Source: Eledone cirrhosa
Taxonomy: Eukaryota
Length of the DNA stretch: 64,000 bases
Direction of reading: 5' to 3'
NCBI GenBank assembly: GCA_964016885.1
Contig: OZ024760.1
Span: 23,684,001 to 23,748,000, forward strand
Within the stretch, counting starts at the first letter, position 1, and each line of letters opens with the position of its first letter. Shown in pieces: positions 33,791 to 63,789 of the stretch. Below the pieces are notes generated by a model, which had not been told where the DNA came from, ran no database searches, and saw nothing but the letters and a program-made list of their open reading frames with translations. The translations under genes were made by a program, and so were the position numbers.

Positions 33791-34579
33791 TGCTAATATA
33801 CCTCCGTAAATTGTTCCGTAATACTGTGAAATAATTCCTTGAAAAATATGATTATCTGAAGCTGGTATTGATCAATACTGTAATTCTTTAAATGTATTAA
33901 AGACCACCCGATCACCAAATAAGGAAATCTTTTCTAATGAATGATTATCGTGTATGAGCAATGTTATAATGATCCCACCATTGGAAATGTACTGCTACTG
34001 CTGTCATGCGCAGACTTCCTATATCATATCCAGAAACACCCATTGACCTGTCTCAATTGAGGACAGAAACGCTCTATCCTCTCACCAACATACATTCTGC
34101 ATCTTCTCTCTCTTAAATCTCCTCGGAATCTGACATCACTTGTTGACCTCTACTCAGGAATCCGCATCTCACTATTCTCTTTTCCTCTCGTTACTCATAC
34201 GCAGAAAATCCATGTGCAGTATGCATATTGATATTATAGGCAAATATATATACATTTAGATATGATACTTCAAATAAAATCGTAATTGACTATATTCACA
34301 GAAATTGAAGAGAAACTCTGTTACACTGTCTTATGTAATCAGTAGAGTAATCCATGATACATTAAAAAACGGCGGTATTATATATAAACTGCATTAGCAG
34401 AAAATTAGAGACGGAAATGGAAACGTTATATAACGATGCAAATATATGAACGTGTATATCAGCGATGTAATAACGGACATACGTGTTGACATTTGAACAT
34501 TTTAACGAAGTGAATCTTGAAATAAGCAATAAAATTATTCATATTTAATCAAGTGTTACGAAATGTTGAACATAAATTA

Positions 34580-34972
34580 TTGGCAGTATCGGTAGCGGAT
34601 CGGACGCCATGCTTTCCAGCATAGTTACGTCCCTTTACGATCTAAGTTCAAATCCCGCCGAGGTTGACTTTACCTTTCATCCTTATGGGGTCGATAAAAT
34701 AAAGTACCAGTAATGCACTGGGTAATTGCTGGCCTTGTGCCTAAAGTAGAAACAATTATTTATTCTATTTAAGGGTGGTGGATTGGCAGTATTGGTAGAG
34801 GGTCGGACGCCATGCTTTCCAGCATAGTTACGTCCCTTTATTATCTGAGTTCAAATCCCGCCGAGGTTGACTTTGCCTTTCATCCTCACGGGGTCGATAA
34901 AATAAAGTACCAGTAATGCACTGGGTAATTGCTGGCCTTGTGCCTAAAGTAGAAACAATTATTTATTCTATT
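34580..34972 (+). mobile_element. Two tandem SINE copies
   Basis: Both end AGAAACAATTATTTATTCTATTTAA. Confidence 0.92.
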
Positions 34973-35418
34973 TAATCCAACTTATTTTACAAATAGGATA
35001 ATAAAATATATTCAGGACGCAGTCCCACAATTCTCCCTTCCTTATATTATGATTGGGTCTAGGCCCAGTGTTAATCAATAGGTATATATATAAAATTTTC
35101 CTCTGAAGAGCGTCATCCCTTTAGAATTCTCTTCTTGGACATGTTATTCACACAGGTATTGAACTCCGACAATATAAACTGAACACCACCATCAATCACA
35201 TCGATATACGAATGACTGCAACAATGATGTCAACAATTATATCCTCCTGACATAACAAAAAAATATACTTACTTAATTATTTAATCAGACAATAAATATA
35301 TCTTGAACTTTAGATAGACAGTCGTACAGATCAATGCCACAATCAATGTACAATCAATTTTTCTTGTAAGACATTTACAGTTTTAAAATCAAGAAAATCA
35401 TAAACACATCTATTTCAA

Positions 35419-48017: not shown

Positions 48018-48598
48018 ATCATATGTTGATTTAAAACTGCACTATTCACAAGTGTTTTTTAACCTTCATATCATGTCTTCCTATTTTATCTGATGAAAAC
48101 ACAAATGTTATTGCATGATGATATTTGTTTTTGAAATGCGTATAATAAAATACATGGAACTCTTTTAACCATCTTTTGATCTTATATATTATATATATAT
48201 ATATGTATATATATATACATATAATATAAGATCAAAAGATGGTTAAAGGAGTTCCATGTATTTTATTATGCGCATTTCAAAAACAAACGTCATCATGCAA
48301 TAATATTTGTGTTTTCATCAGATAAAATAGGAAGACATGATATGAAGGTTAAAAAACACTTGTGGATAGTGCAGTTTTAAATCAACATATCATATGATAT
48401 CCTGTTTTATCTGATGAAAACACAAATATTATTGCATGATGACGTTTGTTTTTGAAATGCGCATAATAAAATACATGGAACTCCTTTAACCATCTTTTGA
48501 TCTTATATTATGTATACTCCAGTCCTACAAACTGTAGAGTGCTTCTTATCCGATATCTGCATTGCTTTATTGTACTACAATAAAACTCACCTCCTACA
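48018..48598. mobile_element. Three family-A arms (+,-,+), each with a minimal hammerhead (48082-48152 +, 48259-48329 -, 48403-48473 +)
   Basis: TATTTTAT-CTGATGA-AAACACAAATATT..ATATTTGTTTTT-GAAA-TGCGCA-TA-ATAAAATA. Confidence 0.85.
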
Positions 48599-49508: not shown

Positions 49509-49538
49509 ATGTATATATATATATATATATATATACGA

Positions 49539-51864
49539 ACAATTAAGTCAAAGATGTACATCCATATATGTATACTGAAATACTAGTATGTATATGAATA
49601 CACACACGTATACATATGTAGATGTACCAAGTTTTTTTTCACTGATCACTTTACTGTGAGTGGCCAGCTATTCTGTATGTAAACACACAGACAAACCGGT
49701 TTTTAGAGTCAAACTGGTTTTTGAGGAAACACCTTTCCTCTATTCTCCAGAAAGCCAGACAAGGAATATTGAACTAGTTTCGTTGTTGTTACAACTCATC
49801 AGCAATATTTACCTATCTTCCGGCCTCTCTAGAGAATCGTAAAAGCACATATCGCTATATGCTTTTTCTATGAAAATTAGTAGTGGGCAGACCAACTTGC
49901 ATAGAGTGTGAGTAAGTACCGGTTCAACGGAGACGATAAAAACAAATAACGAAACGAAATTAAATTTCGTTTCGTTTGTAACTCACTTTTGTATGACTGA
50001 CGCTCAAACAATTAAGTCAAAGATGTACATCCATATATGTATACTAATTTTCATAGAAAAAGCATATAGCGATATGTGCTTTTACGATTCTCTAGAGAGG
50101 CCGGAAGATAGGTAAATATTGCTGATGAGTTGTAACAACAACGAAACTAGTTCAATATTCCTTGTCTGGCTTTCTGGAGAATAGAGGAAAGGTGTTTCCT
50201 CAAAAACCAGTATGACTCTAAAAACCGGTTTGTCTGTGTGTTTACATACAGAATAGCTGGCCACTCACAGTAAAGTGATCAGTGAAAAAAAACTTGGTAC
50301 ATCTACATATGTATACGTGTGTGTATTCATATACATACTAGTATTTCAGTATACATATATGGATGTACATCTTTGACTTAATTGTTTGAGCGTCAGTCAT
50401 ACAAAAGTGAGTTACAAACGAAACGAAATTTAATTTCGTTTCGTTATTTGTTTTTATCGTCTCCGTTGAACCGGTACTTACTCACACTCTATGCAAGTTG
50501 GTCTGCCCACTACTAATTTTCATAGAAAAAGCATATAGCGATATGTGCTTTTACGATTCTCTAGAGAGGCCGGAAGATAGGTAAATATTGCTGATGAGTT
50601 GTAACAACAACGAAACTAGTTCAATATTCCTTGTCTGGCTTTCTGGAGAATAGAGGAAAGGTGTTTCCTCAAAAACCAGTATGACTCTAAAAACCGGTTT
50701 GTCTGTGTGTTTACATACAGAATAGCTGGCCACTCACAGTAAAGTGATCAGTGAAAAAAAACTTGGTACATCTACATATGTATACGTGTGTGTATTCATA
50801 TACATACTAGTATTTCAGTATACATATATGGATGTACATCTTTGACTTAATTGTTTGAGCGTCAGTCATACAAAAGTGAGTTACAAACGAAACGAAATTT
50901 AATTTCGTTTCGTTATTTGTTTTTATCGTCTCCGTTGAACCGGTACCTACTCACACTCTATGCAAGTTGGTCTGCCCACTACTAATTTTCATAGAAAAAG
51001 CATATAGCGATATGTGCTTTTACGATTCTCTAGAGAGGCCGGAAGATAGGTAAATATTGCTGATGAGTTGTAACAACAACGAAACTAGTTTAATATTCCT
51101 TGTCTGGCTTTCTGGAGAATAGAGGAAAGGTGTTTCCTCAAAAACCAGTATGACTCTAAAAACCGGTTTGTCTGTGTGTTTACATACAGAATAGCTGGCC
51201 ACTCACAGTAAAGTGATCAGTGAAAAAAAACTTGGTACATCTACATATGTATACGTGTGTGTATTCATATACATACTAGTATTTCAGTATACATATATGG
51301 ATGTACATCTTTGACTTAATTGTTTGAGCGTCAGTCATACAAAAGTGAGTTACAAACGAAACGAAATTTAATTTCGTTTCGTTATTTGTTTTTATCGTCT
51401 CCGTTGAACCGGTACCTACTCACACTCTATGCAAGTTGGTCTGCCCACTACTAATTTTCATAGAAAAAGCATATAGCGATATGTGCTTTTACGATTCTCT
51501 AGAGAGGCCGGAAGATAGGTAAATATTGCTGATGAGTTGTAACAACAACGAAACTAGTTCAATATTCCTTGTCTGGCTTTCTGGAGAATAGAGGAAAGGT
51601 GTTTCCTCAAAAACCAGTATGACTCTAAAAACCGGTTTGTCTGTGTGTTTACATACAGAATAGCTGGCCACTCACAGTAAAGTGATCAGTGAAAAAAAAC
51701 TTGGTACATCTACATATGTATACGTGTGTGTATTCATATACATACTAGTATTTCAGTATACATATATGGATGTACATCTTTGACTTAATTGTTTGAGCGT
51801 CAGTCATACAAAAGTGAGTTACAAACGAAACGAAATTTAATTTCGTTTCGTTATTTGTTTTTAT
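49539..51864 (+). mobile_element. Hammerhead-bearing 469-bp tandem array (~3.9 units, 50045-51864) with inverted ~1.08 unit (49539-50044)
   Basis: Units start at 50045, 50514, 50983 and 51452 and differ by few SNPs; 13-bp TSD TATATATATACGA at 49526-49538 and 51862-51874. Confidence 0.95.
50115..50159 (+). ncRNA. Minimal type I hammerhead ribozyme (also at 50584, 51053, 51522 on plus; ~49765-49809 on minus)
   Basis: AATATTG-CTGATGA-GTTG taacaa CAAC-GAAAC-TA-GTT-CAATATT; complete core, palindromic stem III AACTAGTT. Confidence 0.92.
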
Positions 51865-51870
51865 ATATAT

Positions 51871-52262
51871 ACGATATTAAATAAATGGAAACTATATTTA
51901 TAAAACCATATTTATTTCATTATATATATTTCAGGGATATCATATTAACAATATGTTATGCCTTCCTCAGACAAAATACAATATAGACAGTTTTATAGAT
52001 AAATAGATTTGACATACCGTTCAACATCGACTTGTATTTGAAAAAGTCTATAAAACTGTCTATATTGTATTTTGTCTGAGGAAGGCATAACATATTGTTA
52101 ATATGATATCCCTGAAATATATATAATGAAATAAATATGGTTTTATAAATATAGTTTCCATTTATTTAATATCGTAAATATACTCCAAATACTTGTTGAG
52201 TGCTTTTATATCAGTTATAAATATTTACTAGTTGTAACACAACAATTTAAATATAACTTTCC
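51871..52262. mobile_element. Family-D PLE-type head-to-head insertion with hammerheads on both arms (51913-51978 -, 52068-52133 +) and tail on the right arm
   Basis: TATTTTGT-CTGAGGA-AGG..CATATT gtt AATATG..CCT-GAAA-TATATA-TA-ATGAAATA; arms identical over ~125 bp. Confidence 0.85.
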
Positions 52263-57333: not shown

Positions 57334-57836
<503 letters not shown>

Positions 57837-58896: not shown

Positions 58897-59048
58897 CATA
58901 TATATATATTTATATATATATAAATATATATAAGTTGAAAAAAATGAAAACGAAATTTCATTTCTCACTCTTAGTATGGCACTTACTTAAATGTAAGTAT
59001 GTATGTATACGTACATACATATATGTATACAGACGTACAGTAGCAAGC

Positions 59049-59083
<35 letters not shown>

Positions 59084-59271
59084 ATATATATACATATATA
59101 TACACATATGCATACAGGTACACATACATATATGCACGCATCAGTTTAGCCTACGTTTATTATAACGCCGGCCGCTTTGTTCGTTTGTTTGTTAACAAAG
59201 CGAACAGCCTGAATTTATGCCATACGGTGTTAAGGCAACCACGTCACCTTTTTGTTCAACACTGACACAGG

Positions 59272-59316
59272 AACGATGTACTAGTTTCAAGCTTGTTAGC
59301 TATCATCAGCACCGTT
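59272..59316 (-). ncRNA. Minimal type I hammerhead ribozyme (nine copies; left coordinates 59272, 59774, 60276, 60780, 61286, 61788, 62290, 62794, 63296)
   Basis: Minus: AACGGTG-CTGATGA-T AGCT aaca AGCT T-GAAAC-TA-GTA-CATCGTT; GUA triplet, U-U at base of stem II. Confidence 0.88.
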
Positions 59317-59362
59317 TACCCATCTGCCAGATAGTTGAACGTTCGAAAGTATATACTTTCCT

Positions 59363-59398
59363 TATGAAAATTAACGGCTGAGCAGCCTAATTTGCATA
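59363..59398. promoter_or_regulatory. Octamer-containing dyad in each array unit (candidate promoter or protein-binding site)
   Basis: TATGAAAATTA-ACGGCTGAGCAGCC-TAATTTGCATA; exact ATTTGCAT at 59390-59397; homologous dyad at 50490-50524. Confidence 0.45.
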
Positions 59399-59551
59399 TA
59401 GAGTGAGTTAAATCGGTCAGGCATACCGAAAACGATAAGTTGAAAAAAATGAAAACGAAATTTCATTTCTCACTCTTAGTATGGCACTTACTTAAATGTA
59501 AGTATGTATGTATACGTACATACATATATGTATACAGACGTACAGTAGCAA

Positions 59552-59600
<49 letters not shown>

Positions 59601-60053
59601 TATACACATATGCATACAGGTACACATACATATATGCACGCATCAGTTTAGCCTACGTTTATTATAACGCCGGCCGCTTTGTTCGTTTGTTTGTTAACAA
59701 AGCGAACAGCCTGAATTTATGCCATACGGTGTTAAGGCAACCACGTCACCTTTTTGTTCAACACTGACACAGGAACGATGTACTAGTTTCAAGCTTGTTA
59801 GCTATCATCAGCACCGTTTACCCATCTGCCAGATAGTTGAACGTTCGAAAGTATATACTTTCCTTATGAAAATTAACGGCTGAGCAGCCTAATTTGCATA
59901 TAGAGTGAGTTAAATCGGTCAGGCATACCGAAAACGATAAGTTGAAAAAAATGAAAACGAAATTTCATTTCTCACTCTTAGTATGGCACTTACTTAAATG
60001 TAAGTATGTATGTATACGTACATACATATATGTATACAGACGTACAGTAGCAA

Positions 60054-60102
<49 letters not shown>

Positions 60103-60555
60103 TATACACATATGCATACAGGTACACATACATATATGCACGCATCAGTTTAGCCTACGTTTATTATAACGCCGGCCGCTTTGTTCGTTTGTTTGTTAAC
60201 AAAGCGAACAGCCTGAATTTATGCCATACGGTGTTAAGGCAACCACGTCACCTTTTTGTTCAACACTGACACAGGAACGATGTACTAGTTTCAAGCTTGT
60301 TAGCTATCATCAGCACCGTTTACCCATCTGCCAGATAGTTGAACGTTCGAAAGTATATACTTTCCTTATGAAAATTAACGGCTGAGCAGCCTAATTTGCA
60401 TATAGAGTGAGTTAAATCGGTCAGGCATACCGAAAACGATAAGTTGAAAAAAATGAAAACGAAATTTCATTTCTCACTCTTAGTATGGCACTTACTTAAA
60501 TGTAAGTATGTATGTATACGTACATACATATATGTATACAGACGTACAGTAGCAA

Positions 60556-60606
<51 letters not shown>

Positions 60607-61059
60607 TATACACATATGCATACAGGTACACATACATATATGCACGCATCAGTTTAGCCTACGTTTATTATAACGCCGGCCGCTTTGTTCGTTTGTTTGT
60701 TAACAAAGCGAACAGCCTGAATTTATGCCATACGGTGTTAAGGCAACCACGTCACCTTTTTGTTCAACACTGACACAGGAACGATGTACTAGTTTCAAGC
60801 TTGTTAGCTATCATCAGCACCGTTTACCCATCTGCCAGATAGTTGAACGTTCGAAAGTATATACTTTCCTTATGAAAATTAACGGCTGAGCAGCCTAATT
60901 TGCATATAGAGTGAGTTAAATCGGTCAGGCATACCGAAAACGATAAGTTGAAAAAAATGAAAACGAAATTTCATTTCTCACTCTTAGTATGGCACTTACT
61001 TAAATGTAAGTATGTATGTATACGTACATACATATATGTATACAGACGTACAGTAGCAA

Positions 61060-61112
<53 letters not shown>

Positions 61113-61565
61113 TATACACATATGCATACAGGTACACATACATATATGCACGCATCAGTTTAGCCTACGTTTATTATAACGCCGGCCGCTTTGTTCGTTT
61201 GTTTGTTAACAAAGCGAACAGCCTGAATTTATGCCATACGGTGTTAAGGCAACCACGTCACCTTTTTGTTCAACACTGACACAGGAACGATGTACTAGTT
61301 TCAAGCTTGTTAGCTATCATCAGCACCGTTTACCCATCTGCCAGATAGTTGAACGTTCGAAAGTATATACTTTCCTTATGAAAATTAACGGCTGAGCAGC
61401 CTAATTTGCATATAGAGTGAGTTAAATCGGTCAGGCATACCGAAAACGACAAGTTGAAAAAAATGAAAACGAAATTTCATTTCTCACTCTTAGTATGGCA
61501 CTTACTTAAATGTAAGTATGTATGTATACGTACATACATATATGTATACAGACGTACAGTAGCAA

Positions 61566-61614
<49 letters not shown>

Positions 61615-62067
61615 TATACACATATGCATACAGGTACACATACATATATGCACGCATCAGTTTAGCCTACGTTTATTATAACGCCGGCCGCTTTGTTCGT
61701 TTGTTTGTTAACAAAGCGAACAGCCTGAATTTATGCCATACGGTGTTAAGGCAACCACGTCACCTTTTTGTTCAACACTGACACAGGAACGATGTACTAG
61801 TTTCAAGCTTGTTAGCTATCATCAGCACCGTTTACCCATCTGCCAGATAGTTGAACGTTCGAAAGTATATACTTTCCTTATGAAAATTAACGGCTGAGCA
61901 GCCTAATTTGCATATAGAGTGAGTTAAATCGGTCAGGCATACCGAAAACGATAAGTTGAAAAAAATGAAAACGAAATTTCATTTCTCACTCTTAGTATGG
62001 CACTTACTTAAATGTAAGTATGTATGTATACGTACATACATATATGTATACAGACGTACAGTAGCAA

Positions 62068-62116
<49 letters not shown>

Positions 62117-62569
62117 TATACACATATGCATACAGGTACACATACATATATGCACGCATCAGTTTAGCCTACGTTTATTATAACGCCGGCCGCTTTGTTC
62201 GTTTGTTTGTTAACAAAGCGAACAGCCTGAATTTATGCCATACGGTGTTAAGGCAACCACGTCACCTTTTTGTTCAACACTGACACAGGAACGATGTACT
62301 AGTTTCAAGCTTGTTAGCTATCATCAGCACCGTTTACCCATCTGCCAGATAGTTGAACGTTCGAAAGTATATACTTTCCTTATGAAAATTAACGGCTGAG
62401 CAGCCTAATTTGCATATAGAGTGAGTTAAATCGGTCAGGCATACCGAAAACGATAAGTTGAAAAAAATGAAAACGAAATTTCATTTCTCACTCTTAGTAT
62501 GGCACTTACTTAAATGTAAGTATGTATGTATACGTACATACATATATGTATACAGACGTACAGTAGCAA

Positions 62570-62620
<51 letters not shown>

Positions 62621-63073
62621 TATACACATATGCATACAGGTACACATACATATATGCACGCATCAGTTTAGCCTACGTTTATTATAACGCCGGCCGCTTT
62701 GTTCGTTTGTTTGTTAACAAAGCGAACAGCCTGAATTTATGCCATACGGTGTTAAGGCAACCACGTCACCTTTTTGTTCAACACTGACACAGGAACGATG
62801 TACTAGTTTCAAGCTTGTTAGCTATCATCAGCACCGTTTACCCATCTGCCAGATAGTTGAACGTTCGAAAGTATATACTTTCCTTATGAAAATTAACGGC
62901 TGAGCAGCCTAATTTGCATATAGAGTGAGTTAAATCGGTCAGGCATACCGAAAACGATAAGTTGAAAAAAATGAAAACGAAATTTCATTTCTCACTCTTA
63001 GTATGGCACTTACTTAAATGTAAGTATGTATGTATACGTACATACATATATGTATACAGACGTACAGTAGCAA

Positions 63074-63122
<49 letters not shown>

Positions 63123-63531
63123 TATACACATATGCATACAGGTACACATACATATATGCACGCATCAGTTTAGCCTACGTTTATTATAACGCCGGCCGCT
63201 TTGTTCGTTTGTTTGTTAACAAAGCGAACAGCCTGAATTTATGCCATACGGTGTTAAGGCAACCACGTCACCTTTTTGTTCAACACTGACACAGGAACGA
63301 TGTACTAGTTTCAAGCTTGTTAGCTATCATCAGCACCGTTTACCCATCTGCCAGATAGTTGAACGTTCGAAAGTATATACTTTCCTTATGAAAATTATAA
63401 CACCGTATGGCATAAATTCAGGCTGTTCGCTTTGTTAACAAACAAACGAACAAAGCGGCCGGCGTTATAATAAACGTAGGCTAAACTGATGCGTGCATAT
63501 ATGTATGTGTACCTGTATGCATATGTGTATA

Positions 63532-63584
<53 letters not shown>

Positions 63585-63789
63585 TTGCTACTGTACGTCT
63601 GTATACATATATGTATGTACGTATACATACATACTTACATTTAAATATATATATATATCTATATATTATATTTATACATTTATATATACATATATATATA
63701 TATTTATATATGTATATATATATAATATATATATAATATATATATATATATAGATAGATAGAGAGAGAGGGGGGTATTGAAACATAGCC

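Follow-up and report, generated by a model that had tools for sequence, protein, structure and literature searches.

Two fixed end sites in hammerhead retrozyme arrays of Eledone cirrhosa and a likely internal start site for a Hydra-type Penelope reverse transcriptase

In Poseidon PAc of Anolis, the reverse transcriptase (RT) starts at two internal sites whose interval is the tail, and both target strands are cleaved and extended (Frangieh et al. 2024, PMC11167929). According to the same report, initiation occurs at RNA without homology to the cut DNA, RNA downstream of the start sites is needed, and the protein is predicted to be a dimer. Elements of the Hydra clade have a C-terminal endonuclease, an RWK motif and a usual length under 3 kb (Craig et al. 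2021, PMC8557442); that account, in the part that bears on these elements, describes no RNA fold at the tail end. For metazoan retrozymes, mobilisation by Penelope-like elements (PLEs) was proposed from co-occurrence and pLTR similarity, with priming left open (Cervera and de la Pena 2020, PMC7229834; Li, Clavereau and Pollet 2026, bioRxiv 10.64898/2026.07.22.740005). This literature leaves open by what means Penelope-like RTs, which are telomerase's closest relatives, select their internal start, and how priming works in animal retrozymes. Our literature search found no paper with a junction at PLE start sites or with mapped retrozyme start sites; supplements may bear on the point.

The window analysed here, a stretch of 64,000 nucleotides from the 3.0-Gb genome of Eledone cirrhosa, which is rich in AT microsatellites, carries two tandem arrays (Table 1). 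Judged by their anatomy, the arrays appear to be non-LTR retrozymes that insert like Penelope elements. The element class and the two-site behaviour are already known. Within one genome, the locus supplies a defined RNA element, two mapped candidate start sites, rules for the arms and for the register, and an intact element as driver candidate, so that the start-site question is open to a direct in vitro test. Our main reading, to which we give a probability of roughly 0.68, is that one of two fixed ends joining (TA)n lies in the linker of a predicted RNA junction, and that a Hydra-type Penelope RT likely uses this linker as one of its two internal starts.

Table 1. Features located in the window (positions of the whole stretch).
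Feature	Positions	Strand	Details
Array 1 (family 1 retrozyme, 469-bp unit)	49538..51864	+	direct arm 50041-51864 (B end); inverted arm 50045-49538 (A end)
Array 2 (family 2 retrozyme, ~502-bp unit, internal AT tract)	58930..63644	-	direct arm 63397-58930 (B end); inverted arm 63398-63644 (A end)
Type I hammerhead motif, short palindromic helix III	50115..50159	+	core pattern; predicted cleavage between 50152 and 50153
Site A, family 1	50379..50387	+	unit positions 227-235; ends mostly at equivalents of 50383, 50385, 50387
Site B, family 1, unpaired linker	50452..50457	+	50457 by longest match; probable true start 0-3 nt before it, at times 4-5
Three-way junction, family 1	50407..50485	+	predicted: closing stem 50407-50412/50480-50485, long hairpin ~50417-50445, linker 50446-50462, small hairpin 50463-50474
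Conserved hairpin directly 3' of junction	50490..50524	+	predicted fold and alignment; pairs the TATG that had been assigned to the closing-stem extension
Junction, family 2	59400..59476	-	predicted; site B ~59435-59438, site A ~59492-59500
Terminal remnants, autonomous Hydra-type family 3 (candidate driver)	48019..48597		further remnants 57405-57741, 23187-23343
Two-armed remnant, autonomous Hydra-type family 4	51870..52262		A end faces array 1; B end at 52262

Array anatomy and the two end sites

Both arrays consist of tandem non-coding units some hundreds of base pairs long, and a pattern search found one type I hammerhead core in every unit, the anatomy of non-LTR retrozymes; further family-1 copies of the motif lie near 49775 (minus), 50591, 51060 and 51529. 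The Rfam scan matched HH9 to the hammerhead (E 1.9e-6) with a score below the gathering threshold, and besides this match it returned AT-repeat noise only. Exact hammerhead-core matches in the genome numbered 9,288 for family 1 and 10,692 for family 2, with 0 in the reversed controls, which gives about 10,000 units per family. The two families are homologous, with 70-80% identity across the junction region. Their arms extend through the hammerhead cleavage site, which is compatible with a circle or an uncut multimer. Units within array 1 differ at single sites (50475 against 50944 and 51413), and at another locus such variants alternate (L066); this variation is unlike the product of a pure monomer-circle template. 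Elsewhere, one family-1 insert pairs an arm some 30 units long (14 kb) with an arm of less than one unit (G000:C1:5738326-5752444), which fits either rolling-circle copying or later expansion.

The ends were mapped on copies picked by their hammerheads, blind to the ends, by aligning the last unit of each arm from its last hammerhead; sampled were those arrays that come first in the list for one chromosome. All 36 family-1 ends fell at two sites, 21 at site B (unit positions 304-306, longest match) and 15 at site A (231-235), one row cut by the locus edge being left out. The 48 terminal segments of family 2 comprised 23 at site B, 18 at site A, 2 at other places and 5 that stop in or before the AT tract without a resolvable end. 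Site A thus takes about 43% of ends. It lies upstream of site B, and the interval between them, the tail, is 70-74 nt in family 1 and 58-62 nt in family 2. The 3' ends across copies are therefore strongly non-random, as the first-pass annotation had predicted, with about half of them in the junction linker. Its statement that both arrays end precisely at TTAT/CGT (the slash marks the breakpoint) describes the direct arms, which stop at this motif at 51864 and 58930; the inverted arms instead end at the second fixed site (49538 and 63644), and the breakpoint itself is ambiguous by 3 nt.

This pairing of one A end with one B end is a rule. It was found in 10 of 10 family-1 and 9 of 9 family-2 two-armed inserts with both ends resolved, with no A+A or B+B insert, three family-2 pairs with one unresolved or other end being left out; both arrays in the window follow it. 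The arms are head-to-head, inverted and 5'-truncated, and the tail is present at one end only (19/19), as in Penelope-type insertions. A tail of the usual 30-40 nt occurs in a 310-nt retrozyme family only (about 34 nt), the families 3 and 4 having 86-92 nt. Tail length thus differs from the Penelope norm, whereas tail behaviour matches it.

The inner head-to-head joints are scattered over the unit (52 family-1 inversion centres, KS p 0.22). This bears on the idea that the arrays spread as DNA, by unequal crossover or segmental duplication from a few founders, so that shared ends were inherited. Arrays of up to about 30 units, and units that are not always identical within an array, would suit such a history; the thousands of dispersed ends with unrelated flanks in several subfamilies, the differing inversion centres and the variation of the end from position to position make it hardly credible.

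The difference between the two arms of an insert is 0-2 letters in 9 of 9 family-1 and 9 of 12 family-2 cases, while the medians between loci are 7 and 6. These near-identical arms rule out two independent RNAs per insert as the rule, and they are as expected if one RNA or identical siblings served as template.

Several observations concern the surroundings of the ends. Two extra letters lie between the end of the inverted arm and the AT run (49537-49538), and a few other ends are similar; these letters are possibly non-templated. At 51864, about 8 nt of AT repeat separate array 1 from another Penelope-type end; in this AT run, array 1 and the two-armed family-4 remnant stand tail to tail (51865-52262). 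Nested insertions into one microsatellite were common among the loci examined.

Breakpoint precision and pairing register

Exact family-1 junctions of the TTAT/CGT type number 1,978 genome-wide, against 0 in the reversed control. Since TAT is common to the RNA and the (TA)n target, the exact position cannot be read more closely than 3 nt, and TTAT/CGT represents the longest match only. At four loci the internal copies read CAU, and the C was kept in none of the four site-B ends; three are in register with a target-derived T and one lies a base earlier. Copying therefore appears to start about 3 nt before the TTAT/CGT cut, and UUAU is not required. The proposed pairing of UUAU with a nicked (AT)n target is thus no requirement, as these ends and the 7 of 50 junctions that start 2-4 nt earlier show.

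Among the 50 distinct family-1 site-B junctions, the five-T form was found 38 times and the three-T form 7 times, the four-T form was absent, 3 had six to eight T and 2 were irregular. The 42 site-A junctions ended at unit positions 231, 233 and 235 in 16, 13 and 8 cases and at 227 in 1 case, with 2 off register and 2 irregular; 38 of the 40 assignable junctions were at odd positions (p 1.5e-9), a few rows being local duplicates. Junctions were counted by hand for ends within 12 nt of the anchors, distinct listed sites only, since the raw matches overcount the reverse strand. Ends step by 2 nt, the register used is by inspection the best match between (TA)n and RNA, and family 2 shows the same tendency. 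In these alignments, pairing seems to set the register.

These counts also bear on the earlier strict form of the priming model, a single start at TTAT/CGT set by UUAU pairing. It accommodates the 38 of 50 site-B junctions that can be read in this form, as well as a register that matches UAU; yet the large share of ends at site A, the loss of C from every CAU-variant end, and the fact that in that register a pure (TA)n primer offers no partner for the first U render it very improbable. What survives of the proposed site of RT recognition and internal priming is a site favoured by non-random ends, Penelope end rules, (TA)n targeting and a short-pairing register, as one of two probable start sites and not as the sole one.

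Another account is that cDNA is made first, by self-priming or with endonuclease resolution, and that microhomology afterwards links it to (TA)n, so that the ends would be cutting or joining points. Self-priming on an antisense template has been proposed for head-to-head repeats (Arkhipova et al. 2013, PMC3846280), the tail has been attributed to endonuclease resolution (PMC8557442), and later joining guided by microhomology could bias the register in a similar way. However, tail ends were mapped onto RT starts in vitro in the PAc study (PMC11167929), and here both outer ends are sense 3' ends at fixed sites while the inner joints are scattered. We consider this account improbable. From the PAc study and the junction statistics together, we infer that the A and B ends are RT initiation sites, as our main reading holds.

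Predicted fold at site B in retrozymes and autonomous elements

The stems that had been claimed for both arrays are present at the claimed places (Table 1). In whole-unit folds, linear or circular, the pairs of the closing stem have probabilities of 0.84-1.00 in family 1 and 0.80-0.99 in family 2, and the linker is mostly unpaired. Against dinucleotide shuffles, the junction region gave z -2.3 (family 1) and -3.8 (family 2); other parts of the unit fold equally well or better (z down to -4.5), so that the z-score alone does not single out the junction. The extension of the closing stem by CATA/TATG, also claimed, did not hold: the family-1 unit gives it a probability of 0.00 and pairs its TATG at 1.00 with a CATA lying downstream, and the MFE and centroid folds of family 2 contain the same downstream hairpin. 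According to these models, the extension is an artefact of folding 96 bases in isolation. Site A lies in weakly structured RNA, and the junction gives no explanation for it. In one family-1 array, three clustered A-to-G changes occur in the hairpin 3' of the junction, all of which keep pairing (L047:59-191); to judge by their type, they could be marks of RNA editing.

Comparison of families 1 and 2 gave little covariation. An unguided MAFFT alignment was made from 22 of the 25 representative variants, three with a non-homologous 5' flank being left out, and RNAalifold recovered from it the junction topology and the next hairpin, with 99% of cells able to pair. The closing stem is invariant, and a two-sided change was found in 1 of 22 pairs, which depends on the alignment, since the 3' strands of that helix are not aligned between families. 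The earlier remark that the stems differ in sequence but keep their pairing is weakly founded for these two arrays, which are homologous.

PLE frames were seen in loci chosen for other reasons. For family 3, a first look gave 7,519 candidates; in many of them a frame of 821 codons is open (800 aa from ATG), and the tandem unit measures 3.9 kb. Its protein has DKT at 123, YRDD at 357 and CxCx5C at 659, with RWT/RWI where RWK is described for the Hydra clade, and a hammerhead and (TA)n flanks are present; a Pfam search of the PLE frames gave no credible match. By motifs, family 3 matches most of the Hydra-clade description and is probably Hydra-type. Families 3, 4 and 8 also end at two sites; the 68 family-4 ends comprised 24 A, 22 B and 22 internal, in a sample that includes loci picked by the B-end pattern.

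The fold predicted for the 5' leaders of these autonomous elements consists of closing stem, long hairpin, site-B linker and small hairpin. Closing-stem probabilities around site B were 0.83-0.99 in family 3, 0.84-1.00 in family 4 and about 0.6 in family 7, and the stem was weak in family 8 (0.13-0.25). The covariation set comprised 11 leaders from 32 clusters in three lineages, the remainder being truncated, rearranged or too distant. In the ungapped columns of an unguided MAFFT alignment of families 3, 4 and 7, 4 of the 9 closing-stem pairs change on both sides, a count matched by 51 of 500 shuffles, while the score of the stem exceeded all 500; 87% of cells pair, against 21-41% with slid partners. 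The stem was named by the analyst, as RNAalifold alone did not predict it on the autonomous leaders, and the small hairpin is invariant in this set through selection by the search pattern. The covariation proposed by the first-pass annotation as a check thus came from the autonomous families, and it was weak between the two arrays themselves.

An upstream ACUC/GAGU hairpin of the autonomous families was at one time equated with the retrozyme closing stem and was dropped once the autonomous closing stem was found. Leaders of families 3, 4, 7 and 8 (L241, L288, L327, L031) contain one more conserved hairpin, placed between the junction and site A, to which nothing in families 1 and 2 clearly corresponds. 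The small hairpin motif 3' of site B also occurs in more distant elements (L328, L329, L331, L332). The window holds hammerhead-bearing ends of at least five other Penelope-type families (10526, 11856, 23548, 23740, 32348, 48090-48465, 57644), and one family group by itself has 59,792 genomic pattern matches. Two-copy repeats of about 200 bp with a SINE-like dispersed look were seen at 6919-7322, 16745-17177 and 34579-34975, one copy being inside a family-2 unit (L098).

For the third retrozyme, of 310 nt (L210, L346-L390; 19,603 genomic matches), 10 ends were at A and 12 at B, and one lay 6 nt before B. Its site B lies inside a closing stem (p 0.7-0.8) and before a GC hairpin, and there is no long hairpin. 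Since it follows the A/B rule without a long hairpin, the three-way junction as such is not universal; the predicted folds share as a minimum a closing stem, an unpaired linker with B and a 3' hairpin. The RT may recognise this fold.

The fixed ends could instead be Penelope RT starts that are set by a short sequence or a neighbouring hairpin, the junction being incidental to a self-paired RNA. This view draws on units with structure along their whole length, on a closing stem and site-B surroundings whose letters do not vary between families 1 and 2, on a 310-nt family devoid of the long hairpin, and on a site A without such a fold. On the other hand, site-B sequences differ among families while an unpaired-linker position 4-10 nt before a hairpin recurs, and the autonomous closing stem shows two-sided changes; we regard an incidental junction as unlikely. 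A bolder form of our main reading is that Hydra-type proteins load on a portable RNA multiloop resembling the template boundary of telomerase, with two starts fixed by the fold, a 2-nt (TA)n register that a few DNA-RNA pairs set, a dimer priming one nicked strand at each site, and mobilisation of unrelated-looking circular retrozymes by fold mimicry. We put this forward tentatively, as a possibility that we doubt rather than favour. If it were true, adding a cassette of some 150 nt would suffice for any RNA to serve as template in two-armed insertion aimed at microsatellites.

Candidate driver, proposed mechanism and comparison with known systems

When both retrozyme units were compared by BLAST with the full family-3 tandem, AT-tract matches only were found among the best 20 matches listed, and families 1 and 2 lack the similarity to the driver pLTR that would mark them as family-3 derivatives. 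Without such similarity, the link to the driver depends on the fold, the end rules and chimeras. In chimeric inserts, family 2 is joined directly to family 3, either with the A end from family 3 and the B end from family 2 (L249/L094) or in the reverse arrangement (L250/L091), and in an older chimera family 2 is joined to a family-3 relative (L195); no family-1 chimera was found in the loci surveyed. The complementary ends of these chimeras suggest template switching within one complex, and deletions between neighbouring inserts could mimic them. On their sequences, the three chimeras would tie family 2 to Hydra-type RNA.

We propose the following mechanism. A Hydra-type RT-endonuclease, probably a dimer, would bind the closing stem and the 3' hairpin of the RNA and nick both (TA)n strands. 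Each nicked 3' end would be aligned on the RNA by 2-5 imperfect pairs between the (TA)n primer and the RNA, the fold setting the place and the pairing the register, and extension would begin at B for one nick and at A for the other. Copying of a template that is circular or multimeric would yield arms longer than one unit, and the arms would be joined at their truncated 5' ends. Retrozymes would borrow the protein by presenting the same type of fold as the autonomous 5' leader.

The locus resembles PAc (PMC11167929) in its two probable internal starts, AT-rich target and upstream hammerhead. The PAc tail of 30-40 nt compares with 58-74 nt in the two retrozyme families, 86-92 nt in families 3 and 4, and about 34 nt in the 310-nt family. 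Unlike PAc, the retrozyme RNA is non-coding, and the putative start lies in a multiloop linker rather than in an AC-rich stem loop. The junction registers point to short pairing, whereas the PAc study reports initiation without homology. The rule of one A and one B end per insert was counted here.

Family 3 shares with the Hydra clade (PMC8557442) a single ORF with a putative C-terminal endonuclease, DKT, CxCx5C, a hammerhead, (TA)n targets and inverted 5'-truncated arms with the tail at one end; it differs from the published description in its length of 3.9 kb and in RWT in place of RWK. Families 1 and 2 resemble the metazoan non-LTR retrozymes described to date (PMC7229834; bioRxiv 10.64898/2026.07.22.740005) in low GC, tandem units of a few hundred bases and co-occurrence with PLEs. 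Unlike the metazoan retrozymes with pLTR similarity, they are dissimilar in sequence to the one full driver unit compared. To the main findings of those studies, our analysis adds the mapping of end sites, of a candidate cis fold and of chimeric inserts.
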